Shown: positions 920 through 40,942 of the stretch, in pieces
Layout of the letters: each line of letters opens with the position of its first letter
How positions within the stretch are numbered: the first letter of the stretch is position 1
Assembly (NCBI GenBank): GCA_028691515.1
Contig: JAQUZE010000005.1
Coordinates: 14,860 to 78,859, forward strand
Direction of reading: 5' to 3'
DNA length: 64,000 bases
From: Bacilli bacterium
GTDB taxonomy: Bacteria; Bacillota_I; Bacilli_A; ML615J-28; CAG-698
Made by a program: the position numbers and the translations under genes
The notes under the pieces: model-generated
Databases searched by the model: none
What the model was told of the DNA's origin: nothing
Seen by the model: only the letters and a program-made list of their open reading frames with translations

Positions 920-1130
920 TATATTGCGAAGAAGTGGACAAGATTATTAATTATTTTATTTTAGAGAGTGCTTGTAAGGTGTAAAAGCATATAAATAATT
1001 TTTAATTACTACCATCGAGCTAACAACGAAAGATTGTTCGTAGCCGAGCGTTAATCGGAATGAGTGCAAGTCTTATAGGCTTGAAAAAGGTGGTACCACG
1101 TATAAGCGTCCTTTATTGGGTGCTTTTTTA
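920..1130 (+). promoter_or_regulatory. T-box riboswitch leader, Thr specifier
   Basis: Stem I motifs AGAGAG (963-968) and GGTGTAAA (978-985). Tandem Thr codons ACT ACC followed by A (1008-1014). T-box motif AAAGGTGGTACCACG (1086-1100). Terminator stem AAGCGTCC/GGGTGCTT (1104-1125) plus a T-run. Confidence 0.85.
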
Positions 1131-1148
1131 TTTTTAGGAGGGAAAATT

Positions 1149-21355: not shown

Positions 21356-23884
21356 TTATAAACCACATTTTAATTGTGCATTACAATTAGTACATGTGTT
21401 ACAGCCACCTATGTTTTCAACAATGCCCTCATTACACAATGGACATATATCTCCGACTTCAACACCTATATTTCTATTAGATTTACTTGAAGGTGGATTA
21501 ACATCATATTGTTCTTTTTTAACGGTTTTTTCTTCAATTTCAATTCCAAGATCTTGAAGTTCAACTTGTTTAGGAAGATCATCTTCTTTTTTAAGTGTAA
21601 GCACTTGGGTATCTCGACTACCATCAACATAAACAGTACCACCTTTAGCATTGCCTTTATAAAGGCGCATATATAATTTTTCAACATCTTCAACTGTATA
21701 ATCTTTTGGTGCATTAACTGTTTTGGAAATAGATGAATCTACCCATCTTTGAATTATACATTGAACATCTGCGTGTTCATCAGCAGTAAGTTCCATTGCA
21801 TTAACGAAAATATCTGGAAGGTTATCATGGCTATATTCAGGGTTGTGTTCTAAATATTTATTTACAACTTCAGCCTTAACTTCCATGAATTTACCTAATC
21901 TACCACTTCGGTAATATTTAAAAGCAAAATATGGTTCTAAGCCTGTTGATACTCCGACCATTGTTCCAGTTGATCCTGTTGGAGCAATTGTAAGTAAATG
22001 AGAATTTCTAATTCCATGTTCTAAAATTTGATTTCTAATATGTTTAGGCATTTTTTTCATAAAACCAGATTCAATAAACTTTTGCCTTGAACCATATTGA
22101 TCAAGAAAAGGGAAACTTCCTTTTTCTTTTGCTAACTCAATTGATTGTTCATAAGAAGAAGTGGCAATAAATTCAAATAATTTATCAACAAATTTATTTG
22201 CTTTAGGACTGCCATATCTTAAGTTACAAAAAATAATTAAATCATGAAGCCCCATGACTCCAAGACCAATACGTCTTTCTCCAAGAGCCTGTTTTTTATT
22301 TTCTTCTAAGAAGTATGTTGTCTTATCGATTACATTATCTTGCATACGAACCGCAACTTTTATTGTTTTATATAGTTTTTTCCAATCTACATCAAGTTTT
22401 TCCCAATTAATCATATTTGCTAAATTGATAGCAGCAAGATTACAAACTGAATATGGAGCTAGTGGTTGTTCACCGCAAGGATTAGAACAAACTACTTTTT
22501 GTCCATATGAAATAGCATTGGTCATATCATTAGCATTATCAATAAAAAATATACCAGGTTCTGCTGAATAAGTTGCACAAATAGAAATTAAATTCCATAA
22601 TTCTTTTGCTTTTAATGTTTTGTATGTTTTTACTCTATATCCCATTTTTTCCCATTCTCTAACGTCTCCACAAGCTTGCCATTTTTCATCATAAGCTGCT
22701 TTTTCGCCTTTAGAGTAATTATCTGTATCAGGGAACTTTAATTGATAATCTAAGTCATGTTCTACAGCATACATAAATTCTTTTGTAATCGCAACAGATA
22801 TATTAGCTCCACTTAAAAAATCAGGATTATTAACAGAGTATTTTCCTCCTTGACTTAAAATTTCTCTTGCTTTTTGCAAAGTGTTCTTACTAATATTACC
22901 AGGATTTATTTCTTCCATTTCAATTATAGTTTCATACATTTCTTCTTCTTCACTAGAAAGAGGTGTGAATTTTAATTTGTCTTTTGCTTCTTTTAATATT
23001 TCTTCATCTGTTAAATTATCAATTAAAAATAACAATATTTTTGGGTTTTGCATTTTACTTATAATAAATTTAATAATATCTGGATGCCAGTCTGCAAGCA
23101 TAATCATTTGTGCTCCACGGCGACTACCGCCTTGTTCTACCAGATGAGTAAGCGTTGATAAATCATTAAGCCATGAAACTGATCCACTTGATTTTCCACT
23201 AACGCCTTTTGCAAGAGAATTTTTTGGTCTTAAAGTAGACCCATTAGTACCTACTCCACCACCTCTAGACATTATTTCCATAACTTGTTGACGATGAACA
23301 CTTATTCCTCCACGAGAATCATGAATAAAAGGCATAACAAAACAGTTAAAAAAAGTAACTGAAGTATTAGATCCCGCTCCAAATAGAACTCTACCTGCAG
23401 GGACTAAATTCATTTCGTTTAATTCAGAATAAAATTGATTAACTCTATCAAGAGTTTCACCATGTGCAAGGTTATTAGCAACTCTATGACAAATTTGCTC
23501 GTAAAAAAGCTCTAATGGTTTATCAACTTCCATTATTTGCTTTTTAATAAGATTATTTGCGTCTAATTCATTGCTCATAGTAATATATTCATCTTCTAGG
23601 CGGATGAAAGCATCAGTGCCGTCTATTTTTTCTATATAGCCAATTCCTCTTGTTGGGAAATTTGGATCTTCTTTAATTACACAGACAACTAAATCTCCAA
23701 CGCTAATAGTTTGGTGATTTATATCTTTTTGGGCATATCTATCAAGTAGAACCATTCTTGATACACTTGAAAAGGATTTTGTCATTTTTTCTGTATCAAT
23801 CAAGAATAAATGAGGAAAATAGTCTTTAATATTTTGATTTAATCTTTCTATTAATTGTTGTGAATATAAATGGTTTACTTGCAT
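21356..23884 (-). CDS. nrdJ: Adenosylcobalamin-dependent (class II) ribonucleotide reductase with a C-terminal Cys-rich zinc-finger tail
   Basis: Single large RNR chain with SNPCGEQPL active-site motif and TIAPTGS; no nrdB/nrdF partner nearby. The C-terminus is CPLC...CNTCTNC...C. Confidence 0.88.
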   Translation of the reverse strand: MQVNHLYSQQLIERLNQNIKDYFPHLFLIDTEKMTKSFSSVSRMVLLDRYAQKDINHQTISVGDLVVCVIKEDPNFPTRGIGYIEKIDGTDAFIRLEDEYITMSNELDANNLIKKQIMEVDKPLELFYEQICHRVANNLAHGETLDRVNQFYSELNEMNLVPAGRVLFGAGSNTSVTFFNCFVMPFIHDSRGGISVHRQQVMEIMSRGGGVGTNGSTLRPKNSLAKGVSGKSSGSVSWLNDLSTLTHLVEQGGSRRGAQMIMLADWHPDIIKFIISKMQNPKILLFLIDNLTDEEILKEAKDKLKFTPLSSEEEEMYETIIEMEEINPGNISKNTLQKAREILSQGGKYSVNNPDFLSGANISVAITKEFMYAVEHDLDYQLKFPDTDNYSKGEKAAYDEKWQACGDVREWEKMGYRVKTYKTLKAKELWNLISICATYSAEPGIFFIDNANDMTNAISYGQKVVCSNPCGEQPLAPYSVCNLAAINLANMINWEKLDVDWKKLYKTIKVAVRMQDNVIDKTTYFLEENKKQALGERRIGLGVMGLHDLIIFCNLRYGSPKANKFVDKLFEFIATSSYEQSIELAKEKGSFPFLDQYGSRQKFIESGFMKKMPKHIRNQILEHGIRNSHLLTIAPTGSTGTMVGVSTGLEPYFAFKYYRSGRLGKFMEVKAEVVNKYLEHNPEYSHDNLPDIFVNAMELTADEHADVQCIIQRWVDSSISKTVNAPKDYTVEDVEKLYMRLYKGNAKGGTVYVDGSRDTQVLTLKKEDDLPKQVELQDLGIEIEEKTVKKEQYDVNPPSSKSNRNIGVEVGDICPLCNEGIVENIGGCNTCTNCNAQLKCGL

Positions 23885-24039: not shown

Positions 24040-24048
24040 TGATATAAT
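24040..24048 (+). promoter_or_regulatory. Extended -10 promoter ahead of the 24070-33320 gene string
   Basis: TGATATAAT lies 21 nt upstream of ATG 24070, followed by an AGGGAG SD. Confidence 0.5.
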
Positions 24049-24069: not shown

Positions 24070-27000
24070 ATGATTGCAGGCTCAAATAAAAAAATCAAAC
24101 TAGAAAAACATGCTAATTATCTTAAAGATATTTTTTCAACAAGCCCTTATATTGAATTAGGCAATATTGATTACAAAATTATGGAAAGAATCATCAATTT
24201 TGAAAAAATAGATATTGAAGAATTGGCTGATTTTAAATTACAAAATAGTAATGTTACTAATTTTAATATTGAAAATGATGAATTACAAAATATTATTCCG
24301 TATTTATTTTTATTAAATACAAACAAGAAAAATAAATCTTATAAAATTTTTTTAACATATGGATTGTTAACTTATAAAAATGAAGAAGGCAAGGAGGTTT
24401 TTTCGCCTATTATTTTAATTCCAGTTAATCTATTTTTTGAGGATGAAAAAGTATATATTCAAAAATTTAGTAGAGCAATTATTAATACAGTGTTAAATAA
24501 AGATTTAGAGAAAATACTTTCTGTTGAACGAAAAAGAATATTAAATATATCATCAGCTGATAATTTCAATAATCTTTATTCAATGGATAAATATATATTA
24601 TCAATGGCTTCAATTCCGGGTTTTGATGTTAAATTAGAAAATTATTTAACTGTTGGGGAAACTATTGAAAAAGATATTAAAATTGATCATAACAGATTTC
24701 CTATTACAAGAGCTCATGAAGCTCATTTAAATGATAAATATTATACTTCACATAATAATTTAGTTTTTCTTTTTTTAATGAATAAACGTCAAAGAGAAGC
24801 ATTACTTAATGCTGTTGAAAATAATAATTTTGTTATTGTCGGGCGCATGGGAACAGGGAAAACTACGACTCTTATAAATATATGTTTAGAAAAAATTAAA
24901 GATGGTAAAAGAGTATTATATGTTTCAAATAGAGATGAAACTTTAAATCAAGTAAGCAAATATTTTGAAGATAATAATTTGGAAAATTATATTGTTAATT
25001 TTTCTAATTCATTTTCGAGTTTTTACTATGGAGAAGCTGCTCCATATACTAAAAACCCTCCGATTATTAATAATAATATTCCTAATTTGTTAGAAAAATA
25101 TGAAGTTATTCAAGAATATGAAAAAATATTTTATTCAAAAATTTTAGATAATAGATATCTTGAGGTGCAAAATGAACTTAATTTCTTATCATTAAAGCCA
25201 ACAAAGGCTCTTAATATTGATGATCTTGACAAATTATATAAAGCTGATTTTTTGAAAGTAGTTAAAGGATTAGAAATAGTTGAACATAATAGAAAAACTG
25301 TTAAATGTATTTTTGAATCATTATGGAACGAAATCCCCTTAACAAATAATATAAAAAGCAGAAAAGAAATTTTAAATCTTATTTATGCTATCCATAGATC
25401 TTTTAAAATATTAGAATCTGAAAAAGAGGTTTTAGAAAAGGATTTTGGAATTGTTCAAGTATTAAATTTAGCTATGTTAAGAAATATTATTAGAACTATT
25501 AAACGTTTAACTATTGGTGATATTCCTCAAAGTTGGAAACAAAAAGGTTTTGCAAAATATTTATTAGCTGAAAAATTATATGCTGATTTAAAAAGAGAAA
25601 TAAACAATTTACAAGAAGCAGAATACCATTTAGATAATACTTATCATGATTTAAATAAAATTAAAATAAATAATGAAATTGTTAATGCTTTAGGAACATA
25701 TTATAGTGAAGATGATTTTGAGAGAATTGATAGTTTATTATTAAAAAGAAAAGATCTTGTATTATTAGCTAATAAAGCTTCATATAATAAAGAATTATTT
25801 GAAAATAGTATTACTGTAATTCAGAAATCACTTAATATGAAGTTAGTATTAAATGTAGAAGATATTAATTTTTTAATTGAATTTTCTCTTTTTTTGAAAA
25901 ATATTAATATTACTGAAACACAAGCTCAGGTCGCACTCAATAAAAATCATAATAATATTGTTCAAGAAATGACGCATATTCAAAATGAGTATATAGAAAG
26001 AATTAAAACAATTAAGAGATTTGAAAAAAATTATCCGAATGCTAATTTTAAACAATTAGATACTTGTTTGGAAATATTTAAAAGTGGATATTTTAATAGG
26101 GAAAATAAAAAACTTTTGTCTGCATTTATTTCTGATAAAAGAAAATTTAATAAACCTCTTTTTATTGAAGAAATAAGTAATGATATTCAAAACACAATTA
26201 GAAATATAGAGATAATAGAAGAATTAAAAAAAAGGTATTTTATTTTATCTAATTTAAATATTGAAGATTATGAAGAAGATTATAAAAATATTTCTTTAAT
26301 AATTGATTATTTAGAAAAAATCAAAGGAAGTAAATATATAAAAGGTGTTTTGCATTTATTTAAGAAAAATGAAAAATTAGGAAATACACGATTTATTAAA
26401 ATAGAAAATTCATTTACAAACTTTTTATCATCATATCGAGAATTTCAAAATATGAATTTGATATATACAAATTATGGTTTTACTTTAAATCAGCATTTTA
26501 TTGGTTATTATTATGAAATTATTAAAATTAATCAATATTTACAAAAATTATTTTCTTCAAATGATCGCTTAGCTTCTGTTGTTAATGATGAATCTTTAGA
26601 TTATATTTCATTTAAAACTTATTTAGATATTAGGGATTCTCAAAATTTAATTTGCTCCATAAATGAATCATTAAAAAATAATGATATCTATCGAGAAATA
26701 TATGGAGAAATGTATAACGAAGGATTAAGCAACATTAATGCAATTAGTCGAGTTATTCAAAATTTTGGTAATTATATTAAATGTTTTAATGAAGATAAGG
26801 ATGTTATCGAATCATTAAAAATTGATGTAAGTTTTAAGTTGGGGAACCATCTTAATCGTTGTTTAGAAGTTAGTGATGAGATTAACATTTTATTCCAAAA
26901 TTATAGTAAAATATTTAAATTTGGAGTTACAAAATTTTTGTATGCTGACTATAACGAGACTATTGAATATATGAGTAGTTTATTAAGGTCAGAAGATGAA

Positions 27001-28404
27001 TTAATAGCTTATCTTAATATTATTGAGGGATTAAAACCATTGTATGAGAATAATTTAAATAAATTAGTTGATTATATTGTTAATTTAAAAGAAAAAGACA
27101 CTTTAATTAATGATTTTAAGTATTCATATTATTTAAATTTACAAAATTTATTTTTAAGTAAATATGAAAACATTAACAATTATATAGAAATTCAAAAACA
27201 ACTTGAAGAAATTGTTGAGTTAGAAGAAGAAATTACTCAAAATAAAACTTTTAATATAGTTAATTACATAAGAAAATATAGTGGAAATAAATATAGTATT
27301 CATAATATTAAGGAATTAGATTATATTTCTTATTTAAAAAGAACAAAAAATATAAAAAATTTAGTTCTTACTCCAACATCAATTGTTAATCATTATTTAG
27401 ACATTAATGATTTTGATGTAGTTATTATTGATGATGCTCATTTATTGCATGCTAATGAGTATAACGAAGCAATTAAGGGAAAACAAGTTATAATTTGTGG
27501 TGAATTACAATTACAAAGTGTGGCTTCTAATAATTTAATTTGTAGAATGAGAAGTAATGCAATTATTAATATGAATTATAGATTTATTCCATCGCCTAAA
27601 AATCTTTTGAATAATATGGAAGGATCTAGAGGGGTTATTAAGAACACATTTAGTGCAAATAAAGGTATAAAAATAATTAATACTTCAATATTAGAGTTTA
27701 TTATTAATTTATATATTGAAAATATTAATTTAAAAGTAAATATATTTGTGAAAAGTTTTGATAATCAAAAGCAAATATATGAACAGTTGACAAATTTATT
27801 TGTTGAAAGAAAAATTTCTAAAAAACAAATAATTGATATTTTCACAAATAAATTGAATATAGTTGACTTAAGTCTTGGTTATCTATATCATTCGGATTAT
27901 AATATTATTTATTTAGAAGATTATTTTGATTTTTATTTTGAGCCTTTAATTCATAATATGATTGATTATATGTTGCAATGTACAGAAGAGTTAATTATTT
28001 ATGATTCAAGAAATTATTTAAAACAAATAAATTTTGCATTTGTTGATATTTTAAACAGAATAATTGAAAATAGTGACAAGAAAATATTTAATAATAAGAT
28101 AATTAATAAGAGTGTTCTTGGATTAGGAAAATTATTAATTAGTAAAGGATATAAAGTTTTTTCGGGACATGATGATTTTAGTCTGACTTTAGAAAAAGAT
28201 GATAAAATGTATGGTGTGTTATTGTTTTCTGATTATTTGAGAAACAATTATGAAATACTTAATCAATATAGAGATTATTATAGTGTGTTTAAAAAGAATA
28301 ATTTTAAAGTAATAATAGTTTGGGTTAATTCTGAAAATAATAATCTTGATAAAATTGCAAGCAAAATTATAAAGGAGATAAATGATGGGGAAAACAATAA
28401 CTAA
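24070..28404 (+). CDS. Giant (1444 aa) degenerate SF1 (Upf1/DNA2-like, DUF4011-type) helicase-like P-loop protein
   Basis: Walker A GRMGTGKT (nt 24841-24864). Walker B-like VVIIDDAH (from nt 27421) lies ~860 aa later. Degraded helicase motifs GELQLQ and NYRF follow. The N-terminal PIILIPV segment is DUF4011-like and the C-terminal region is endonuclease-like but degraded. Confidence 0.6.
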   Translation: MIAGSNKKIKLEKHANYLKDIFSTSPYIELGNIDYKIMERIINFEKIDIEELADFKLQNSNVTNFNIENDELQNIIPYLFLLNTNKKNKSYKIFLTYGLLTYKNEEGKEVFSPIILIPVNLFFEDEKVYIQKFSRAIINTVLNKDLEKILSVERKRILNISSADNFNNLYSMDKYILSMASIPGFDVKLENYLTVGETIEKDIKIDHNRFPITRAHEAHLNDKYYTSHNNLVFLFLMNKRQREALLNAVENNNFVIVGRMGTGKTTTLINICLEKIKDGKRVLYVSNRDETLNQVSKYFEDNNLENYIVNFSNSFSSFYYGEAAPYTKNPPIINNNIPNLLEKYEVIQEYEKIFYSKILDNRYLEVQNELNFLSLKPTKALNIDDLDKLYKADFLKVVKGLEIVEHNRKTVKCIFESLWNEIPLTNNIKSRKEILNLIYAIHRSFKILESEKEVLEKDFGIVQVLNLAMLRNIIRTIKRLTIGDIPQSWKQKGFAKYLLAEKLYADLKREINNLQEAEYHLDNTYHDLNKIKINNEIVNALGTYYSEDDFERIDSLLLKRKDLVLLANKASYNKELFENSITVIQKSLNMKLVLNVEDINFLIEFSLFLKNINITETQAQVALNKNHNNIVQEMTHIQNEYIERIKTIKRFEKNYPNANFKQLDTCLEIFKSGYFNRENKKLLSAFISDKRKFNKPLFIEEISNDIQNTIRNIEIIEELKKRYFILSNLNIEDYEEDYKNISLIIDYLEKIKGSKYIKGVLHLFKKNEKLGNTRFIKIENSFTNFLSSYREFQNMNLIYTNYGFTLNQHFIGYYYEIIKINQYLQKLFSSNDRLASVVNDESLDYISFKTYLDIRDSQNLICSINESLKNNDIYREIYGEMYNEGLSNINAISRVIQNFGNYIKCFNEDKDVIESLKIDVSFKLGNHLNRCLEVSDEINILFQNYSKIFKFGVTKFLYADYNETIEYMSSLLRSEDELIAYLNIIEGLKPLYENNLNKLVDYIVNLKEKDTLINDFKYSYYLNLQNLFLSKYENINNYIEIQKQLEEIVELEEEITQNKTFNIVNYIRKYSGNKYSIHNIKELDYISYLKRTKNIKNLVLTPTSIVNHYLDINDFDVVIIDDAHLLHANEYNEAIKGKQVIICGELQLQSVASNNLICRMRSNAIINMNYRFIPSPKNLLNNMEGSRGVIKNTFSANKGIKIINTSILEFIINLYIENINLKVNIFVKSFDNQKQIYEQLTNLFVERKISKKQIIDIFTNKLNIVDLSLGYLYHSDYNIIYLEDYFDFYFEPLIHNMIDYMLQCTEELIIYDSRNYLKQINFAFVDILNRIIENSDKKIFNNKIINKSVLGLGKLLISKGYKVFSGHDDFSLTLEKDDKMYGVLLFSDYLRNNYEILNQYRDYYSVFKKNNFKVIIVWVNSENNNLDKIASKIIKEINDGENNN

Positions 28405-28960
28405 GAGATTCTTTTTTGATTTTTTAAGAACTGTAAAAGAAGACCCTCATCGTTATCTATATATTAAAAATGCACTTATGAGATTTAAAAAAGAAGGTTT
28501 TGATATTAACACTAAAAATCCCAATGGAAAAACTCTTTTACATATAGCTGTTACATTAAATGAGAATAAGTTATGTAAGTTGTTGTGTAAATTAGGAGTA
28601 ATTATTGATTTAGCTGATGACTTAGGCAATACCCCCTTACATCAAGCTGTAGCTGAGAATAAAATTAGAATTGTAAAAACGTTAGTTACAGCTGGAGCAG
28701 ATGTGAATTTGGGAGCTGAGCAAGATCAAACGCCTTTACATTTAGCTGTAATTAATGGAAATTTAGATATCATCAAGTATTTGGTTAATAACAATGGAGA
28801 TATTCTTTTAGTCGATGAAAAAAATTTAGACTCAATTGATTATGCAGTTGATGAAAGAGATGCAAATATTGTAAATTACTTTTCAACAAAAATTGACATT
28901 TCTAAAAAAAGATTGGAACATATTGATAGGATTATGAAAGGTGAAGATTATGAAAGATAG
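28382..28960 (+). CDS. Ankyrin-repeat protein
   Basis: Three to four ANK repeats (NGKTLLHIAV..., LGNTPLHQAVAENKIRIVKTLVTAGADVN, DQTPLHLAVINGNLDIIKYLV). An AAGGAG SD is present. The start lies inside the 3' end of the giant gene. Confidence 0.85.
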   Translation: MMGKTITKRFFFDFLRTVKEDPHRYLYIKNALMRFKKEGFDINTKNPNGKTLLHIAVTLNENKLCKLLCKLGVIIDLADDLGNTPLHQAVAENKIRIVKTLVTAGADVNLGAEQDQTPLHLAVINGNLDIIKYLVNNNGDILLVDEKNLDSIDYAVDERDANIVNYFSTKIDISKKRLEHIDRIMKGEDYER

Positions 28961-29753
28961 ATTTCAGGAAATTATAAATATTTTACAGACAAGAGTTGGG
29001 ACACCATTAGGAATAGTTACTTTAATAATTGATATTTTATTAGTTATAGTAATTATATTTATTTTAGCAAAGTTAATAAAAGGTAAGATAAAATTATCTA
29101 TTTATTTTACAACAATAATAACTTTGGGGTTTTTGTTTGCTATTGGTTATTTTTTTGAGATTGTTTTAATTACTAAATTTGTAGAGTTATTATTTATATT
29201 AGGTGTTGTAATGTTGATTGTAGTTTATAATCAAGATATACGCTATTTTATGGAAGGAAAAATGGAAGTTAACAAGGTTGATAATATTTTTTCTTCAAAA
29301 CAAGAAAAAGATGATATTATTAAAATAATTAGTTCTGCAGTGAAGGAGTTATCTGATAAATCTGTTGGTGCATTAATAACTTTTGAAAGAGAAGATAGTT
29401 TACATAATATTATTCTTAATGCAATTCAAATTGATTCAAAAATTACTCATGAACTTATAACAACTATTTTTACTCCTGGAACAGCTTGTCATGATGGTGC
29501 AATGATTATACGAAGAGATAGAATAGTTTGTGCTGGAGCGTATTTACCAACAACTGAAAAATATAATGTGCCTACTTTTCTTGGAACGAGACATAGAGCA
29601 GCCATTGGTATTAGTGAAAGATATGATGCAGTTACTATTGTGGTTTCTGAAGAAACAGGAAATATTAGTATTACAGTAGACGGAGTAATTACTTTAGATA
29701 TTACTATTGAACGTTTAGAAGAATTATTGGATAAATATCTATTAAATAAATAA
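28950..29753 (+). CDS. cdaA: Diadenylate cyclase CdaA (DacA)
   Basis: Three N-terminal TM helices plus a DAC domain ([35 protein letters not shown]). The start is ATG 28950 or GTG 28941; both lie inside the ankyrin gene. Confidence 0.92.
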
Positions 29754-29776
29754 TTATAAATAAGGAGGAAAGATAT

Positions 29777-30130
29777 ATGAGAATTGCTTTAATTGCCCAT
29801 GACAAGAAAAAAAGTCAAATGATTGAATTTTGTAAAAAAAATGAACAATTTTTAAGCGAACATATTCTTGCAGCAACAGGACAAACTGGACATTTAATAA
29901 TGGAAAATACTAGTTTAAAAGTACATTGTTATAAGTCAGGACCACTTGGAGGAGATCAAGAAATTGGGGCACAAGTTGCTAACAATGCTATTGATTTAGT
30001 TATTTTCTTTAGGGATCCTTTGACTGCTCAACCACATGAGCCAGATGTTTCAGCATTATTAAGGCTTTGTGATGTTTATGAGAAGCCTCTTGCTACTAAT
30101 GTTAGTACGGCTACAATGATTATCAGATAG
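29777..30130 (+). CDS. mgsA: Methylglyoxal synthase
   Basis: [22 protein letters not shown] and [21 protein letters not shown] closely resemble Bacillus MgsA. Confidence 0.93.
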
Positions 30131-30140
30131 GAGAAAAATT

Positions 30141-31640
30141 ATGACAGTAAATACTTATTACATTTTATTATCTATACTGTTTTCTTTAATATCTATTGCA
30201 ACATTTATTGTTGTTGCAACTTTTTCTAAAAAACTCACTTTTTTTAGTTTATTTTCTACAGTAATAGGTATTATTGGATATAATATTGTTTTTGTTTTTA
30301 GAGAACTAGAAACAATACAATTTTTATCTCAAAATCTTTGTTTTTGGACTTTCCTTGGAGGAATGATATTTTTAGTGATTAATTTAATACTGGTTCTTTT
30401 TGCAGTTAGAATTCATTCAAAGAGAAAAAAGCTTATTTTTTCTGCAAAAGAAAAATATTATAATAAATATTTTTGTTTACTAGCTAAAAACGATAATATG
30501 CTATTATTTAATCATAAAATTAAAAAAATATTGTCTAATGAACAAAATATAACAAAAAGAAAAGATATTTATAAATTATTAAAAAAAGCAGATAAGCCAA
30601 AGTTTAATTTATTTGTTGAAAATAATAATGTTGTATTTGAGTTAGAAAAGAAAGATTTATTTTATAAAGAAAAATTGGTTGGTTTTGCATATGTTGGTTC
30701 ATATGATTTATTGACAAAAATATTAACTGATTATGAAAGAAAAGAAGAAAATAAAGGTTTTAATAAATCTTCAAGTCAATTCTTTAATTTATCATTTGAT
30801 ATGTCTAGTGAAACAGTTATGTACTTTGATTTTGAATTGGGTAAATATGTTTTATCAAATTATATGAAAGAGTTATTGAATGAAAAAGACAATTATTTAT
30901 CTGAGGAAAAATATCAAGAAAAAATAGTTTCAAGTGATTTAGTAATTTATTTAAAGAAAGAATATCAAAGTGAGTTTATTAATAAGTATGAATATCGTGT
31001 TAAAACTGAAAAAGGAATTTTAAAATTTGAAGAATTAGTATATAAAGATAATAATAAAAATTATGATATTATTAGACCTTCTAGTAGATCCCATACAGAA
31101 GTTAATTATTTATCTAAAACTAATTTAAAAGAAGATATCGAAAAATATTATTCAAATAATTCAGAATTTATATTTATATATATTGATTTAAAGACTATAA
31201 CTAAAACTTTAGTTTTTGATAAAGAATTGGGTGATTTATTAACAAAAAATTATTTTATACTTTTAAAAGATAAATATTTAGATAATAAAGTCTATAGGCT
31301 TGAGAATAATCAATTTGCATTTTTACTAAATATAGATGAAGGGACTAGAATTAAAACAGATTTAGAAAACAATTGTTCATTGTTAACTTCAATGGAAATT
31401 ATGTTAGATAATGAGAAAATATTAATTGAGAATGTAGTTTCCTTTATTTATGCTAATGATATAGAAGAAAAAACCGCAGATAATTTAATTAGAATTGCTA
31501 TTAATGAAATTTATATGATTAGAGATTCTGAGAATACTGAGTTATATAGTATTTATCAAGTTCCAAAAAAGGATGAAGAATATAAATTTGAAGATATGAT
31601 AATTGATCTAAATGATGATGATTTAGATGAATTCCTATGA
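30141..31640 (+). CDS. Membrane protein with a C-terminal degenerate GGDEF-like domain
   Basis: Three to four N-terminal TM helices. The C-terminal ~160 aa follow the GGDEF-domain pattern, but the signature reads RLENNQFAFLL instead of RxGGDEFxxLL. Confidence 0.6.
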   Translation: MTVNTYYILLSILFSLISIATFIVVATFSKKLTFFSLFSTVIGIIGYNIVFVFRELETIQFLSQNLCFWTFLGGMIFLVINLILVLFAVRIHSKRKKLIFSAKEKYYNKYFCLLAKNDNMLLFNHKIKKILSNEQNITKRKDIYKLLKKADKPKFNLFVENNNVVFELEKKDLFYKEKLVGFAYVGSYDLLTKILTDYERKEENKGFNKSSSQFFNLSFDMSSETVMYFDFELGKYVLSNYMKELLNEKDNYLSEEKYQEKIVSSDLVIYLKKEYQSEFINKYEYRVKTEKGILKFEELVYKDNNKNYDIIRPSSRSHTEVNYLSKTNLKEDIEKYYSNNSEFIFIYIDLKTITKTLVFDKELGDLLTKNYFILLKDKYLDNKVYRLENNQFAFLLNIDEGTRIKTDLENNCSLLTSMEIMLDNEKILIENVVSFIYANDIEEKTADNLIRIAINEIYMIRDSENTELYSIYQVPKKDEEYKFEDMIIDLNDDDLDEFL

Positions 31641-32167
31641 TAAAAGCAGAATTAAGAACAAAAATGAAAATGGTAGAATTAGATAATTCTACTAAGTTAA
31701 TATATGATAAAGCAATTAATGATTTTTTAGAGAAATTATTATTTAATTATGAGAAAATAGCAGTATTTAAAGCTTTAGAATATGAAGTTAATATTGATCA
31801 AACAATTAATAGATATATTAATAAAAAGAATATTTATTTACCTGTTGCGAAAAAGAAGTTAAGATTTTATAAATATTCTTTAGATACTAAATTAATAAGA
31901 AGTAATTATAATGTTATGGAACCTACTTGTTCTACAGAAATTTCTATTAATGATTTAGAAGTTATCGTAATACCTTCTTTAGCAATTAACAAAAAGGGAT
32001 ATCGGTTAGGTCATGGAGCTGGATATTATGATAAGGCTTTAAAAGATTTTAAGGGATTAAAAATTGGAGTTATTTATAGTTATGGTTTTATAAATGATGA
32101 ATATCAAGAAAATCATGATATGAAATTTGATATTGTTATTACTGAGAAAGAAATTATTAGAATGTAG
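31637..32167 (+). CDS. 5-formyltetrahydrofolate cyclo-ligase
   Basis: Characteristic C-terminal motif VIPSLAINKKGYRLGHGAGYYDKAL. ATGA overlap with the upstream stop. Confidence 0.8.
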   Translation: MIKAELRTKMKMVELDNSTKLIYDKAINDFLEKLLFNYEKIAVFKALEYEVNIDQTINRYINKKNIYLPVAKKKLRFYKYSLDTKLIRSNYNVMEPTCSTEISINDLEVIVIPSLAINKKGYRLGHGAGYYDKALKDFKGLKIGVIYSYGFINDEYQENHDMKFDIVITEKEIIRM

Positions 32168-32175
32168 GTGATATT

Positions 32176-32844
32176 ATGTTTGATGTTGTTATTCTTGCTT
32201 CGGGAGGATCAACAAGATTTTCAGCAAAAGTCAACAAAATGTTGGTAACTTTAAAAACACGACCATTATTTTTAATATCAATTGATAAGTTTTTAAAAAT
32301 AAAAGATTGTGAGAATATAATATTAGTTATTAGCAAAGAAATAGAAGAAAATGTTATTTCAATTCTTACTAATTTAGAAATTATTGATAAAGTTAAATTA
32401 GTAATTGGTGGAGAAAATAGACAAGATAGCGCATTTAATGGTTTAAAAGAAGTGAGTAATGAAATTGTTTTGTTTCATGATGCAGCTAGGCCTTTAACTT
32501 TAAGTAGTGATATTAATCGGGTTTATGAAGAAGTTAAAAAGCATCGGGCAGCATTTTTAGCTAGTAAATCCACTAGCACAGTAAAAATGGTTGATGGAAA
32601 AGTTGTAACTATCGATAGAGAACATATCTTTTTTTCTGAAACACCTCAAGGAGGTTATGTGAAAGACTTTAGGAAAGCTTATGAGAAAGCTATTAAAAAA
32701 CAATTTAATGGTACAGATGATATGATTTTACTAGAGAAGTTTTTAAAAATTAATCCTTCACCAGTTTTAAGTAGAAATAAAAATATCAAAATAACTACTA
32801 TTGAAGATTATCAATATGCTAGATATTTAATTGGAGATAAATAG
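32176..32844 (+). CDS. ispD: 2-C-methyl-D-erythritol 4-phosphate cytidylyltransferase
   Basis: VILASGGSTRF, HDAARP and ETPQG motifs. Followed by ispF. Confidence 0.88.
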   Translation: MFDVVILASGGSTRFSAKVNKMLVTLKTRPLFLISIDKFLKIKDCENIILVISKEIEENVISILTNLEIIDKVKLVIGGENRQDSAFNGLKEVSNEIVLFHDAARPLTLSSDINRVYEEVKKHRAAFLASKSTSTVKMVDGKVVTIDREHIFFSETPQGGYVKDFRKAYEKAIKKQFNGTDDMILLEKFLKINPSPVLSRNKNIKITTIEDYQYARYLIGDK

Positions 32845-33320
32845 TGGAAATTAAAATTGGACATGATTCGGATACTCATCCTTTAAAAAAAGGAAAGGTT
32901 TTATATTTGTGTGGTATTAAAATACCCTATGATAAAGGTCTAGAGGGGCATTCTGATGCAGATGTTGTATTACATTCTGTTGCAGGATCAATAATTGGAG
33001 CTTTAGGATTGGGTGATTTAGGAACATTATTTAAGGATGATAATCCTGACTATAAAGATATTAGATCTGATTATTTTATTTACAAAGTTAATGATTTGAT
33101 GAAATTATATGGTTATAAGATTAATAATATTGATATTACTATATATATAGAAAAACCAAAGATTAATGAATATATAATTAATATGAAGGACCACCTTGCT
33201 AATTTACTGAATATTTCAAATGATAAAATTAATATTAAAGCAACTCATTTAGAAGGATTAGGTTTTATTGGAAGAGGTGAAGGAGTTACAGCTGATTCAG
33301 TAGTTCTTTTAATAAAATAA
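32844..33320 (+). CDS. ispF: 2-C-methyl-D-erythritol 2,4-cyclodiphosphate synthase
   Basis: IGHDSDTH, GHSDADV and LGDLG motifs. GTG start overlaps the ispD TAG stop by 1 nt. Confidence 0.88.
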   Translation: MEIKIGHDSDTHPLKKGKVLYLCGIKIPYDKGLEGHSDADVVLHSVAGSIIGALGLGDLGTLFKDDNPDYKDIRSDYFIYKVNDLMKLYGYKINNIDITIYIEKPKINEYIINMKDHLANLLNISNDKINIKATHLEGLGFIGRGEGVTADSVVLLIK

Positions 33321-33384: not shown

Positions 33385-33630
33385 ATGAATATTGAAGAAA
33401 AAGAAAAAAAAGTAAGGTTTATTTTAGATAAGGTTAGACCATATATTCAAAATGATGGTGGCGATGTTGAGTTTGTAAGAATAGAAAATGGTATTGTTTT
33501 TGTTAAAATGCTTGGTGCTTGTGTTGGTTGTGCGAGTGTTGATGTTACGTTAACAGAGGCAATTGAGACGATAATATTAGAAGAAGTACCTGGTATAATT
33601 GGTGTTGAACAAGTATTTGATGATTTTTAA
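33385..33630 (+). CDS. NifU C-terminal domain (Nfu-type) Fe-S cluster carrier
   Basis: 81 aa with DGGDVEFV...GACVGC, the typical Nfu CxxC motif. Confidence 0.85.
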   Translation: MNIEEKEKKVRFILDKVRPYIQNDGGDVEFVRIENGIVFVKMLGACVGCASVDVTLTEAIETIILEEVPGIIGVEQVFDDF

Positions 33631-33647
33631 AAATTATTTATTATAAT

Positions 33648-33677
33648 AAAACTGGAATATTTTATATTCCAGTTTTT
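33648..33677 (+). terminator. Rho-independent terminator after nfu
   Basis: Perfect 13-bp stem AAAACTGGAATAT/ATATTCCAGTTTT with a 3-nt loop and T-rich 3' side. Confidence 0.8.
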
Positions 33678-37138: not shown

Positions 37139-38155
37139 ATGAAATTATTTAAAAAAATTTGGCTTCTAGCTTTGTTTTTTGTAACAGCTATATTTTTAGT
37201 AGGTTGTGGTTCAAGAACTTATAATGCAGAAGAAACTGGTATAAAAAACGATGGAGTTTTTAATTATAAAGTAATAGAAAATAAAGCAGAAATTATAATT
37301 GTTGATGAAACAACAGGAATTGAAAGAACAGAAATTGTTGACGATAATTTTATAATTATTGTAAATTTAGTTAATCAACAAAAAGATGTTGTTGTTCCTG
37401 ATACAATTGAAGGGCTTCCTGTAAGAGAAATTGCTGATTTTGCTTTTTATGAATATTATAAACTTATTGGTTTAATTACGATTCCAAGAAGTAAATTAGA
37501 GACTATAGAATTACCAAATACTTTGCAAAAGATTGGAAAATTTGCTTTTTATCAAGCAAGGAATTTAAAATCTGTTATATTGCCTGCAAGTTTAAAAGAA
37601 CTTTCAGAATCAGCTTTTGCAGGTGCTAATAAACTTACTTCATTTACTATTAATAGAACAGAAAGTGAATATAAAGAATATGCTAGTAATAGTTCGGATT
37701 TAGATCCAATAATTATTACAGGTGGACGAGATGCTTTTGTTGGAGATTTTTTCACTTTAGAGGCTACTGAGCCTGTAAGTTGGGAATCAAGTAATCCTGG
37801 AACAGCAGCAATAGATCCTGATTCAGGTAGAATTACAACTCGAAGTGTCGGTATTTATACAATTACTGCTAAATCAAGACAAACTAATAAAGTATCAACA
37901 GTTACAATGGAAGTAATTCAAGAAGATTTAACAAATAAATTAGCTTTTAAAGATAAAGCAATGGATAGATTAAATAAATTAGAGTCTTTAGTTTTAAATG
38001 TAAAAAGTCCAGAATTACTTGGAATGACTGAAAATTTTTTAAAACTTAATAGTAATGTAAAAATTTATGTTCCTGAAGAATCTGTTAGTTTTTATAAAAA
38101 TCATAAAATTTTTAAAATATATGCTGATTCAATTTTTCCCATTGTAGAAAATTAA
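37139..38155 (+). CDS. Surface lipoprotein with BspA-type leucine-rich repeats and a Big_2 (Ig-like) domain
   Basis: Signal peptide with lipobox LVGC. LRR_5-like units (IADFAFY..., IGKFAFYQARNLKSVILP..., LSESAFAGANKL). Big_2-like SWESSNPGTAAIDPDSGRITTRSVGIYTITA. Confidence 0.75.
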   Translation: MKLFKKIWLLALFFVTAIFLVGCGSRTYNAEETGIKNDGVFNYKVIENKAEIIIVDETTGIERTEIVDDNFIIIVNLVNQQKDVVVPDTIEGLPVREIADFAFYEYYKLIGLITIPRSKLETIELPNTLQKIGKFAFYQARNLKSVILPASLKELSESAFAGANKLTSFTINRTESEYKEYASNSSDLDPIIITGGRDAFVGDFFTLEATEPVSWESSNPGTAAIDPDSGRITTRSVGIYTITAKSRQTNKVSTVTMEVIQEDLTNKLAFKDKAMDRLNKLESLVLNVKSPELLGMTENFLKLNSNVKIYVPEESVSFYKNHKIFKIYADSIFPIVEN

Positions 38156-38343: not shown

Positions 38344-39954
38344 TTGAAATTATTCACAACTTTTAATTTTGATATAATTATAATTATTATTGCATTTTTT
38401 GGAGTAGTAATAGGAATTTATCGCGGTCTATATACGCAGTTAAAAAAAACAGCCTCCCTTACAATTCCATTAATAATATTATATTTTTTATTGCCTGTTA
38501 TTAGTAAAAATGCAATTAGTAATGATAAATTTGTTAATTTTGTGAAGTTATTTCTTTTCTCTAAGTTAGAAGCGCATATATATTTGATAATAAATTTATT
38601 TATTGGAATAATACTATATATTGGTTTTGCAATTATAATTTATTTAATTTTTAATTTATTTCAGAAAAAAGATATTAATTATTATTTATTAAATAAAAAG
38701 ACAATTGGAAGAGTTATTGCACCGTTTATTTCTCTTCTTTCTTCATATATAATTGTGTTTATGGTATTGTTTGTTTCAAGTCCTTTTGTAAATGATACAA
38801 ACACAAAGATTTCTGCTTTTTTAGAAGACAATACATTATCAATTAATGAAATTGGAACTATTCATCAATATAAAAATAAGTTTTCTTTAGAATTTGTACA
38901 AGCTAAAGAATTATATGAATATGTTTCTTCTGATAATATTTTAGAAAGTTTTAAATATTATGATTTGTTAGAAGCATCTATTAATGAAATTGAAAATAAA
39001 TTAACAGATATTTATGATGATTTACATGAAGATTCTAAAGATCTTCTTAGAAACGAAAAAACAGTAAATAAATTAATTGAAGAAAAAGAAGGAAAATATA
39101 TAATTGATCTTATTTTGAAAATAGAAAAAAAACATGAGAATTTTGATTATATAAAAAATAAAAGAAATTACATAATTGATAATATTGGTTTTATTAAGAT
39201 AATGAATAGTGATTTTTATGAAAAAAACGATTATATGATTTTGAAAACAATTGATGAATATGAAGTGTTAAAAGAGAATTTTGTTACTAAAAATTCATTA
39301 AATAAATTTAATATAATGGTTGATTACTATAAATTTTATTCCAACAATAAGGAATCTTTACAAAGCATAGCTGGCTTGAATGATGTTGATATTTATACAT
39401 ATCAACAAAAATTAAACAATATATTTTCAAATAATTCATTGATTTATATATATATTAATGATTTTAATATTCAGTATGGAAATAGCGACAATCTTTTAAT
39501 GCAAAAACTATGTGATTTGTTTAATCAAGTTATAAAATATAAAGATAAATTTTTAGAAATTGATGAAAATATGAATTTTGCAAGTAGGTTTGTTTTTGCG
39601 AAAAATTACAATAATTGGTTTGTTAATCAAGAATGGTTATATAGACCTTTAGTTAATGGCTATTTTAATGATGCACTTCTTAATGTAAATAGCAATGTTA
39701 ATTTATTATTCAAAGAAATATTATTTGTTTCTTTATTGCCCGAATATAATTTGGAAAATACAATTGATAATAATGATATTGATGTTTTTGTTAATAATTT
39801 AAAAACATTGATTGCAAAAAACATTTTATATTCAAGAGATTCAACAATTATTTTAAATCAATTATTGGTTGATAATCTTTTTATAGATAAATTATTAGAT
39901 AAAGAATTAATCAGTTTTGATACTGTACAGTATGCGAAAGGATTAATTGTGTAG
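38344..39954 (+). CDS. Membrane protein: CvpA-like N-terminal 4-TM domain fused to a ~380-aa helical domain of unknown function
   Basis: TTG start 5 nt after a GAGGAG SD. The N-terminus FDIIIIIIAFFGVVIGIYRGL resembles the CvpA family. I recognise nothing in the remainder. Confidence 0.55.
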   Translation: MKLFTTFNFDIIIIIIAFFGVVIGIYRGLYTQLKKTASLTIPLIILYFLLPVISKNAISNDKFVNFVKLFLFSKLEAHIYLIINLFIGIILYIGFAIIIYLIFNLFQKKDINYYLLNKKTIGRVIAPFISLLSSYIIVFMVLFVSSPFVNDTNTKISAFLEDNTLSINEIGTIHQYKNKFSLEFVQAKELYEYVSSDNILESFKYYDLLEASINEIENKLTDIYDDLHEDSKDLLRNEKTVNKLIEEKEGKYIIDLILKIEKKHENFDYIKNKRNYIIDNIGFIKIMNSDFYEKNDYMILKTIDEYEVLKENFVTKNSLNKFNIMVDYYKFYSNNKESLQSIAGLNDVDIYTYQQKLNNIFSNNSLIYIYINDFNIQYGNSDNLLMQKLCDLFNQVIKYKDKFLEIDENMNFASRFVFAKNYNNWFVNQEWLYRPLVNGYFNDALLNVNSNVNLLFKEILFVSLLPEYNLENTIDNNDIDVFVNNLKTLIAKNILYSRDSTIILNQLLVDNLFIDKLLDKELISFDTVQYAKGLIV

Positions 39955-39958
39955 ATAT

Positions 39959-40930
39959 ATGCATAATAAAAAAATAAAGGTTTATGATGAAGTAAACGGT
40001 AATATAATTAGTGTAGATGAAAAGAGTGCGCAAACAAAAAGTGAAGTTGACCAAGTTTTGGGAGATAAATATCAAACTCTGTTATTTTTAAAATCAAATC
40101 CATTTTTTTATAATCATGACATGGATAAGGATAAAGTAAAATCTTTAGAAGAATATATAGTTATTTATAAGAAAAGAGAGAATTCATTTGGAGAATTTAT
40201 TCATAGTAGTGATTTTAGTAAAAAAGAAAAAATAAAAATAATTAAAAAAAGTTTTAAATTTTGGAATAAGGATTATAATAAACAAAGAAAAGAAAGTGTG
40301 TCTAAAGGCTCTAATGCTTTAAAAGCGGTAGAAATCGCTGATATTAAAAAGTTTTCTTTTCTTCAAACATTTTTGTTGTTATTAGGGTTTATAATTTTGG
40401 TTATTACTATTAATATAGATTCTCAATTATGGGTTTCTTTTAAGAATATAAATCTGGGATTTTACTTATATGAAAAAATAACAAAATTATTTAATATTGC
40501 TTGGATACCTATTGTTGGGACGATAAGTTTATATTTGTTTGTAATTACTCTATTATATTTATTATTTTATAACGAAATTATTAAAAACTATAAATCTCAT
40601 TATAAGGAAAATTCAAAGATTATAAATAGAACTAAAAGTAATTTAAAGAAGGAACAAAAGAAAAACAGTAAAAAAAGTTATAATTATTATATGAACAATG
40701 TAAAAAAAGGTAAATTGGTTTTCCCTGGTGTGAAAATTAAAGATGTTGCACCTGGAGTTTTAAATCTTGATTTTTATAATCAAGTAAGTGAAGAAATAGT
40801 GCAAAAAACAGGCAAAATAAAAAAACGCAAATGGTTTTTTGTTGCTAGTAAATACTTATTTTTAGCTCTTTGTTTGTTAAGCTTTGTATTTATGATTGGA
40901 GCTATAGTATTCCAAATAATTATCGGTTAA
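39959..40930 (+). CDS. Hypothetical membrane protein (soluble N-domain, 3 central TM, basic linker, C-terminal TM)
   Basis: ORF abuts the upstream gene: stop TAG 39952-39954, ATG 39959. I recognise no family. Confidence 0.5.
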   Translation: MHNKKIKVYDEVNGNIISVDEKSAQTKSEVDQVLGDKYQTLLFLKSNPFFYNHDMDKDKVKSLEEYIVIYKKRENSFGEFIHSSDFSKKEKIKIIKKSFKFWNKDYNKQRKESVSKGSNALKAVEIADIKKFSFLQTFLLLLGFIILVITINIDSQLWVSFKNINLGFYLYEKITKLFNIAWIPIVGTISLYLFVITLLYLLFYNEIIKNYKSHYKENSKIINRTKSNLKKEQKKNSKKSYNYYMNNVKKGKLVFPGVKIKDVAPGVLNLDFYNQVSEEIVQKTGKIKKRKWFFVASKYLFLALCLLSFVFMIGAIVFQIIIG

Positions 40931-40942
40931 TAGGAGGGTAAA

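Follow-up and report, generated by a model that had tools for sequence, protein, structure and literature searches.

Which proteins control the diadenylate cyclase CdaA where its gene is not accompanied by cdaR and glmM? To our knowledge, control of CdaA is understood only for the CdaR/GlmM pair, through which the enzyme is tied to the supply of cell-wall precursors. The question is raised by a 64,000-nucleotide stretch of DNA from an uncultured Bacilli bacterium (contig JAQUZE010000005.1 of assembly GCA_028691515.1; hereafter the window, meaning this whole stretch), in which cdaA is the last of three closely packed genes. The first encodes a very large helicase-like protein, which we call the giant protein, and the second a small ankyrin-repeat protein, which we call ANK:

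24070..28404, + strand: giant gene (1444 amino acids, Upf1-like superfamily 1B (SF1B) P-loop protein); ATG at 24070, TAA at 28402-28404
28385..28960, + strand: ANK (ankyrin-repeat protein, 191 amino acids, or 192 with ATG 28382); TAG at 28958-28960
28950..29753, + strand: cdaA (membrane-anchored diadenylate cyclase, 267 amino acids); start overlaps the ANK stop

ANK and cdaA each begin before the preceding gene has ended, an arrangement first pointed out in a preliminary description of the sequence and borne out, coordinates included, by the list of open reading frames (ORFs) and the raw sequence. ANK begins at ATG 28382 or 28385, with AGGAG ahead at 28373-28377, and overlaps the giant gene by 23 or 20 nucleotides. 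The cdaA start is either ATG 28950 (with AAAGGTGA ahead at 28937-28944 and an 11-nucleotide overlap with ANK) or GTG 28941 (a 20-nucleotide overlap), the former being favoured by orthologue alignments. As argued below, the sequence evidence suggests that the helicase-like protein and ANK may constitute a new set of CdaA partners.

The preliminary description had also stated that cdaR and glmM do not follow cdaA. This held for the 64-kb window and for related loci of up to about 20 kb each: a Pfam scan of window ORFs of at least 120 amino acids found no YbbR or phosphoglucosamine-mutase gene, and neither cdaR nor glmM lay next to cdaA in about 100 related loci. The gene classes found downstream of cdaA in the window, namely mgsA (methylglyoxal synthase), a gene for a membrane protein with PAS-like and degenerate GGDEF-like regions, MTHFS and ispD, recurred after cdaA in about 60 related loci.

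Conservation of the gene order around cdaA

We scanned a 24-sequence alignment of the giant protein against one genome per GTDB species and identified the neighbouring genes by tblastn with the window proteins. Homologues of the giant protein numbered 64, nearly all of full length (about 1400-1445 amino acids), and by source name all came from metagenome-assembled genomes (MAGs) labelled Bacilli or Acholeplasmataceae. A true homologue was present in 23 GTDB species genomes, at 21-41% identity; these genomes were labelled Acholeplasmataceae, Acholeplasmatales, 'Tenericutes bacterium', 'Bacilli bacterium' or Coprobacillus sp. CAG:698, apart from a few evident mislabels. All 23 carried the giant gene, ANK and cdaA adjacent to one another, in the same order and on one strand. 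With start codons in the related loci assigned by a simple ribosome-binding-site rule, the giant/ANK junction measured -1 to -20 nucleotides in 21 of the 23 loci (-8 or -20 in most), and the ANK/cdaA junction -17 to +19 nucleotides, likewise in 21. As for the exceptions, ANK of L020 (4309-4863) is truncated by an internal stop, the giant gene of L027 (10001-13994) is split and the cdaA start of L012 is uncertain. The giant gene is also split in a further contig, L045 (8001-12250); the truncated and split genes could be assembly or frameshift errors in the MAGs, or real decay.

The trio was also present on five more contigs, four of them reached through the most distant giant-protein homologues (L043, L044, L045 and L126) and one through a CdaA homologue (L041). 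On L044 it stands without its usual neighbours hflX, ribonucleotide reductase and ispDF, flanked by NUDIX and metallo-beta-lactamase-fold genes upstream and by a hydrogenase cluster downstream, and its junctions are a 1-nucleotide overlap and a 2-nucleotide gap. The presence of the trio in this unrelated neighbourhood indicates that the three genes have moved, or been retained, as one unit.

A metagenome scan starting from ANK yielded 75 orthologue loci, which partly duplicate the genome loci. Within this set, cdaA lay no more than 450 nucleotides past ANK in all 67 loci having at least 500 nucleotides of downstream sequence, and a giant-type ORF ended at the ANK start in all 53 loci having at least 700 nucleotides upstream. 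In 47 of these 53 the upstream ORF was an adjacent tblastn match, in four it was an N-terminal match together with an open frame of 1440-1495 codons, and in two it was an open frame to the contig edge only. Clustering by ANK identity sorts the 101 orthologue loci into 80 groups when the threshold is 95%, into 55 at 80% and into 19 at 60%, and among the loci recovered no ANK orthologue was found away from cdaA. A word-based ANK search returned six orthologues and generic ankyrins, and a phmmer search against 1.8 billion representatives was swamped by giant multi-ankyrin proteins. CdaA identical to that of the window occurs on contigs of GCA_028681715.1, GCA_028705585.1 and several JGI/ENA metagenome assemblies, with the same layout in all; the clade is known only from metagenome assemblies, of biogas or fermentation reactor, activated-sludge and gut samples. 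L042 (GCA_900198705.1), a candidate for a cdaA locus without ANK and the giant gene, was rejected: the scaffold is joined by Ns, and one gap of 100 N falls some 100 nucleotides upstream of cdaA.

Linkage of the ANK and giant genes to cdaA was the point on which the preliminary description had staked its proposal, and the giant-ANK-cdaA order proved invariant in every related locus recovered. The flanks vary: ribonucleotide reductase, hflX, a ClpB-like gene or others stand upstream, and downstream of cdaA roughly one related locus in two has mgsA and one in three has MTHFS. An internal control is provided by the genes that likewise keep together in these loci, which are established functional partners (ispD-ispF and tsaE-tsaB-rimI-tsaD). 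Taken together, the invariant order, the conserved junctions and the changing flanks support a functional unit. The trio is a conserved, vertically inherited and translationally coupled expression unit, specific to an uncultured low-GC clade of Bacilli.

The encoded proteins

From its sequence, CdaA looks like an ordinary, catalytically intact enzyme. Its DAC domain matches PF02457 (E 3e-39) and the CdaA/DacA catalytic domains in the PDB (E 3.5e-38), and a near-full-length PDB diadenylate cyclase chain, 9g69 (292 amino acids), aligns to residues 18-264. The protein narrowly misses the cutoff of the CdaA model TIGR00159 (181.1 bits against 188.8), which is still the best model, 38 bits over CdaS; CdaM reaches 122.7 bits (cutoff 225) and DisA 29.7 bits (cutoff 201). 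A hydrophobic N-terminal region of about three segments (residues 14-98), corresponding to about three transmembrane (TM) helices, precedes the predicted cytoplasmic DAC domain. The HDGA and GTRHRAA motifs are present, and HDG and RHRAA are invariant in 23 orthologues.

ANK starts with a basic helical region, continues with three canonical repeats and a capping repeat (DYAIDE), and ends in a C-terminal tail; it matches the Pfam families Ank_2 (E 2e-24) and Ank (E 2e-20), and the TLLH/TPLH repeat signatures are conserved in its orthologues. Hydropathy shows no TM or other hydrophobic segment, as expected of a soluble protein. Across 24 orthologues, which share 37-50% identity, D144, E145, D152 and E157 are invariant and E112 and E114 are at least 90% conserved; presumably these acidic residues lie outside the generic ankyrin consensus. 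Median identity to the window protein is 45% for ANK, which equals that of CdaA (46%) and exceeds those of IspD (35%) and the giant protein (31%). For a repeat protein of 190 residues such tight conservation is unusual, and it is in keeping with a fixed binding partner.

The giant protein carries the NCBI label 'MAG: DEAD/DEAH box helicase family protein [Bacilli bacterium]' and is likewise soluble, with no hydrophobic segment by hydropathy. It is built from a DUF4011-like N-terminal domain (about residues 90-230), an Upf1-like SF1B core and, at the C-terminus, an alpha/beta domain of about 100 residues. For the first of these, the Pfam DUF4011 model scores 16.5 bits, under its cutoff of 22.2, and hhalign pairs residues 91-322 with the DUF4011 helicase P0065 at 97.6% probability; a structural model of the domain (predicted local distance difference test, pLDDT, 76) gave no significant fold match in the PDB (best E 0.19). 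In the core, motifs Q, I and Ia are present (Q241, GTGKTT at 261-266 and VLYVS), with Q241, G258, G263, K264 and T265 (the GxxGTGKTT P-loop) and Y284 invariant in the family and L283 and S286 at least 90% conserved. Motif II reads IIDDAH (1118-1123), in which the invariant D1121-D1122 gives DD where DE is usual; motif III is GELQ from 1144 (GExQ in the family) and motif IV is YRF at 1170-1172. Motifs V and VI were not recognised in the 24-sequence alignment, no QG, TRA or arginine-finger pattern being found where we presume, from Upf1-like helicases, that they would stand.

A profile search of the PDB retrieved IGHMBP2 (E 5e-11), DNA2, Sen1 and Upf1 at motifs Q-I-Ia and II-III only, and no PDB or Pfam sequence match covers the RecA2 part. 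An AlphaFold2 model of residues 245-1444 (pLDDT 85.9; predicted template modelling score 0.55) has a RecA1 domain into which about 750 residues, all helical, are inserted; a RecA2-like alpha/beta domain and the C-terminal alpha/beta domain come after it. Foldseek matched this model to Senataxin, IGHMBP2, DNA2, Aquarius, Sen1, Upf1 and nsp13 (E 2.6e-5 to 1e-3, over 310-430 aligned columns). The giant protein shares with Upf1-like SF1B helicases (IGHMBP2, Sen1/Senataxin, DNA2 and Aquarius) motifs Q, I, Ia, III and IV, a variant of motif II, the two-RecA fold and the site of insertion between motifs Ia and II, but differs from them in the DD of motif II, in its unrecognisable motifs V and VI and in the enlargement of the insertion. 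Its N-terminal region is probably homologous to that of a DUF4011 helicase. The AAA_12, MTES_1575 and DUF3320 domains of the bacterial DUF4011 helicases (PDC-S37, ProA) were not detected in Pfam, NCBIfam and PADLOC scans.

Our reading is that the giant protein is a much-altered descendant of DUF4011/Upf1-like helicases that has kept predicted nucleotide binding and perhaps hydrolysis; the canonical chemistry of a translocase has probably been lost, and a large scaffold of helices has been added. Given its three departures from the Upf1-like pattern, it is less likely to be a processive helicase than a switch or scaffold that binds ATP and possibly, still, nucleic acid. Among the homologues recovered, the family occurs in this clade only and always with ANK and cdaA. 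A resemblance of the last 100 or so residues to a decayed nuclease fold of the DUF559/MTES_1575 type was discarded, as it came from motif spacing judged by eye and found no support from any tool.

Candidate control of CdaA and its alternatives

ANK and the giant protein, both without TM segments, are presumably cytoplasmic, on the side that the DAC domain occupies in studied CdaA enzymes. We propose that ANK would act as their dedicated adaptor or as an inhibitor, contacting CdaA at its DAC domain, or the giant protein, or the two together, and that the nucleotide- or ligand-bound state of the giant protein would set the output of cyclic di-AMP (c-di-AMP) through ANK. An operon-encoded soluble regulator of CdaA has a precedent, on which this proposal is modelled: GlmM, encoded in the operon in other Bacillota, attaches to the DAC domain and so prevents the active head-to-head oligomers from forming (PMC8573169, PMC6368335); in B. 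subtilis CdaA, Arg126 is a residue that contacts GlmM (PMC8573169). On balance, we lean towards ANK as a dedicated partner that may place c-di-AMP synthesis under the control of the giant protein. A bolder version is that the giant protein, ANK and CdaA form one signalling complex, in which the helicase-like ATPase would respond to a cue from nucleic acid or a nucleotide and gate CdaA through the ankyrin adaptor, having replaced the cell-wall-linked control by CdaR and GlmM; this we put forward tentatively, as possible but the less probable outcome.

Several considerations weigh against a dedicated CdaA partner. All of the support comes from gene order and conservation, and ANK could serve the giant protein alone. 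The region from hflX to tsaD is broadly syntenic in the clade, so that the linkage could in part be a gene order handed down in small genomes that rearrange slowly. Identity correlations among the trio proteins are no stronger than those with ispD or ispF; correlations of this mirror-tree style were set aside as uninformative about coupling, all genes of the region co-varying with phylogeny. Neither an ANK-DAC nor a giant-ANK fusion was seen in our searches, which are poorly suited to fusions.

The first alternative assigns the giant protein and ANK to a two-protein machine of their own, acting for instance in nucleic-acid or chromosome transactions, with cdaA merely on the same transcript. 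The giant/ANK overlap is indeed more uniform than the ANK/cdaA junction, the synteny of the broader region points the same way, and housekeeping operons of small genomes often mix functions, mgsA, MTHFS and ispDF being in the same string here. Yet cdaA is attached in every locus while the other neighbours vary, the relocated trio on L044 and all 67 metagenome loci included, and the start-stop overlap or near-contact between ANK and cdaA is conserved. We regard an independent machine as a serious but doubtful explanation.

The second alternative concerns the membrane protein encoded in the string of genes that continues past cdaA:

29777..30130, + strand: mgsA (methylglyoxal synthase, 117 amino acids; TIGR00160, 186 bits, above cutoff); starts 23 nucleotides past cdaA, with AAGGAGG ahead
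30141..31640, + strand: 499-amino-acid membrane protein, PAS-like and degenerate GGDEF-like (family alignment, hydropathy); 10 nucleotides past mgsA
31637..32167, + strand: MTHFS gene (Pfam/NCBIfam); 4-nucleotide ATGA overlap with the preceding ORF
32176..32844, + strand: ispD (Pfam/NCBIfam); 8 nucleotides past the MTHFS gene
32844..33320, + strand: ispF (Pfam/NCBIfam); 1-nucleotide overlap with ispD
33385..33630, + strand: NifU-like gene (Pfam/NCBIfam); 64 nucleotides past ispF

The 499-residue protein has three or four N-terminal TM helices, a PAS-like middle (YRxxTxxGxxxFEE; YRLxTxxGxxWFEE in the family) and a GGDEF-like C-terminus with ENNQF at the position of the GGDEF motif, a position that varies among orthologues. 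It had been called a degenerate GGDEF protein; the term is justified by this motif and at the level of the family, where 5 of 11 orthologues match GGDEF (PF00990, best E 1.9e-5) and two match PAS_3, but not by the window protein taken alone, which has no Pfam match. The soluble part, past a positive stretch that follows the last TM helix, is probably cytoplasmic, whereas the YbbR domains of CdaR are extracytoplasmic. Nearly all related loci have a + strand ORF of 390-545 amino acids between cdaA (or mgsA) and ispD, and the family hidden Markov model recognises most of these ORFs (E 1e-142 to 2e-6). Probably the protein belongs to this module as an additional component. It was under-weighted in the preliminary description, being nearly as conserved in position as ANK and the giant protein and an equally plausible partner of CdaA.

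It might accordingly be proposed that this membrane protein is the main regulator of CdaA and a stand-in for CdaR, with ANK and the giant protein peripheral. Besides its near-constant position, its gene lies immediately next to cdaA in loci that lack mgsA, such as L029 and L043, and it combines a sensor-type PAS and GGDEF-like fold with a membrane anchor, as CdaA does. However, it is missing beside the relocated trio on L044, mgsA separates its gene from cdaA in about half of the loci, and the protein is poorly conserved (18-25% identity in the family alignment), the GGDEF-like domain being confined to the longer versions and lost from those of about 400 residues. We consider it unlikely that this protein is the principal regulator, a role that would in any case be compatible with ANK as a dedicated partner.

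ANK and the membrane protein also differ in length across the clade (loci L011-L126). Short forms of ANK (under about 178 amino acids, without the C-terminal tail) mostly accompany a membrane protein of about 400 residues without the GGDEF-like end, with mgsA in 2 of 30 loci; long ANK lineages mostly have a membrane protein of about 500 residues, with mgsA in 26 of 54. This pattern could be plain phylogeny, or a co-variation of the ANK tail with the GGDEF-like domain.

A third possibility, that this cdaA is an accessory second copy and that a canonical cdaA-cdaR-glmM operon elsewhere in the genome means that nothing has been replaced, we find improbable. Nothing speaks for it directly, although the CdaA score lies slightly under the equivalog cutoff (181 against 188.8 bits). 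Against it, CdaA is the best NCBIfam model by a wide margin, the 120 best CdaA matches are single-domain proteins (228-271 amino acids, 44-100% identical) apparently from the same clade, and the phosphohexomutase active-site motif is absent from 1.4 Mb of window and related-locus sequence, which is local and redundant. Finally, we reject as extremely remote the idea that the trio is an anti-phage defence system, with a PDC-S37/ProA-type helicase and a nucleotide cyclase as signal generator: the giant protein partially matches PADLOC PDC-S37 (E 6e-18, residues 241-529) and NCBIfam ProA (E 1.8e-16, residues 239-306, 58.8 bits against a cutoff of 1500), ANK matches the PADLOC candidate PDC-M72A, and papers mentioning DUF4011 appear to include some on defence hotspots and on mycoplasma integrative and conjugative elements, but the giant-protein matches cover the P-loop region only and fall far under the family cutoffs, nearly every locus has the same core housekeeping neighbourhood with identities that track core genes, CdaA is an ordinary membrane enzyme without a PADLOC match, and no mobile-element or defence-island context was seen.

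Setting of the locus and relation to known systems

Two signals frame the string of genes:

24040..24048, + strand: extended -10-like element TGATATAAT, 21 nucleotides before the giant gene ATG (direct reading)
33648..33676, + strand: strong intrinsic-terminator-like hairpin with a 13-bp stem (terminator scan), the first strong one, after the NifU-like gene

The giant gene also has a possible ribosome-binding site, GGGAG. The preliminary description had placed a single sigma-A-like element before this gene. The element is there, but neither it nor its being the only one finds statistical support: in this DNA of 26% GC, promoter-like matches numbered 127 against 134 expected from shuffles, so that the number of promoters cannot be inferred. 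The 3' end of the giant gene contains two near-consensus sigma-70-type pairs, TTGACA-17-AAAAAT at 27787-27815 and TTGACT-17-TATCAT at 27863-27891, about 500-600 nucleotides before ANK; they could drive a separate ANK-cdaA transcript, although such matches occur at chance frequency. The same description had found no terminator between 24070 and 33320. No strong one precedes 33648, but a weak hairpin with a T-run lies at 30196-30219, within the 499-residue ORF; terminator-like sites in the region number seven, against 2.3 expected. The MTHFS gene, ispD, ispF and the NifU-like gene, with no terminator between, are probably co-transcribed with the genes upstream.

The window as a whole, at about 26% GC and with a strong + strand gene bias, contains core Bacilli genes (rpsB-tsf-pyrH-frr-uppS-cdsA-dxr-rseP-proS, tsaEBD, pcrA-like, ligA, uvrA, lgt, whiA and thrS). 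A T-box leader at 920-1116 (96 bits, above the gathering score) stands directly before thrS (1116-3059), which is ordinary for Bacillota and supports the taxonomic placement. At the window edge, the ORF at 16-501 matches an IstB-like IS21 helper ATPase (E 2e-11) and suggests an IS21-type element or its remnant. Upstream of the giant gene and divergent from it, a ribonucleotide reductase of 842 amino acids (21356-23884, - strand) is the most conserved gene of the region, at 72-77% identity across the clade, and holds this position in part of the genomes only. Three successive large ORFs of 536, 327 and 916 amino acids without a Pfam match (38344-43693 and 37139-38155) lie where GC content is lowest in the window (0.20) and AT skew greatest, immediately past a BspA-type leucine-rich-repeat protein; they may encode lineage-specific surface or structural proteins.

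The most divergent lineages have ispD and ispF fused (L043, 14833-15939; L126, 9573-10673), where the window has them separate and overlapping. Genes with a Spore_YunB domain lie near the module on L041 (18929-19573) and L043 (19822-20296), two contigs of uncertain taxonomic context; L041 is linked to the Acholeplasma-like labels through its cdaA-ANK region only. In a lineage that has no wall and does not sporulate, such genes would not be expected, and they raise the question of envelope type.

Judged by its cyclase, though not by its partners, the module is a CdaA operon; the sequence places the enzyme with neither DisA, CdaS nor CdaM. As in the cdaA-cdaR-glmM operons of B. subtilis and L. 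monocytogenes and the dacA-ybbR-glmM operon of S. aureus, the membrane CdaA has a TM N-terminus and a DGA/RHR DAC domain, the partner genes share its transcription unit through tight junctions, and a soluble cytoplasmic partner would be able to reach the DAC domain, as GlmM does (PMC8573169, PMC6368335). The difference lies in the partners, which here are encoded upstream and are an ankyrin protein and a 1444-residue Upf1-like ATPase, rather than a downstream YbbR membrane protein and a phosphoglucosamine mutase.

DisA scans DNA and pairs with RadA, and the association of a DAC enzyme with a nucleic-acid-dependent ATPase fold is alike in concept in the radA-disA pair and in the trio. Here, however, the cyclase is CdaA-type, membrane-bound and ends right after the DAC domain, without a linker and helix-hairpin-helix domain; the ATPase is SF1B-like and not RadA/RecA-like, and the link would run through a separate ankyrin protein. 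The analogy depends on the giant protein binding nucleic acid, for which it has an Upf1-like fold, but one with motifs V and VI unrecognised and DD in motif II. We take CdaM of Mycoplasma pneumoniae to have one TM helix and no cdaR/glmM neighbours. The window enzyme has about three such helices and scores far better as CdaA than as CdaM (181 against 122.7 bits), and no ANK or giant partners have been described for CdaM. Like the window enzyme, CdaM belongs to the same broad lineage, as the DAC enzyme of a wall-less relative (PMC5508000).

Full-text literature searches found no paper that links an ankyrin protein to a diadenylate cyclase and none on c-di-AMP signalling in Acholeplasma-type organisms, and an interactome of S. 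mutans DacA lists no helicase or ankyrin partner (PMC13289029). If the trio does act as one signalling complex, a clade labelled Acholeplasma-like would have a counterpart of DisA/RadA built on CdaA and, to judge from these searches, the first bacterial second-messenger cyclase under ankyrin regulation. A concrete role, open to testing, would also be assigned to an orphan family of helicase-like proteins of about 1,400 residues and to an ankyrin protein that bacteria do not secrete as an effector. The trio can be expressed heterologously, which makes the hypothesis testable even though the organisms are uncultured. That a normal CdaA is always paired with two quite different proteins in this clade points to a second, unexplored control of the cyclase, with unexpected input from a nucleic-acid-type ATPase.

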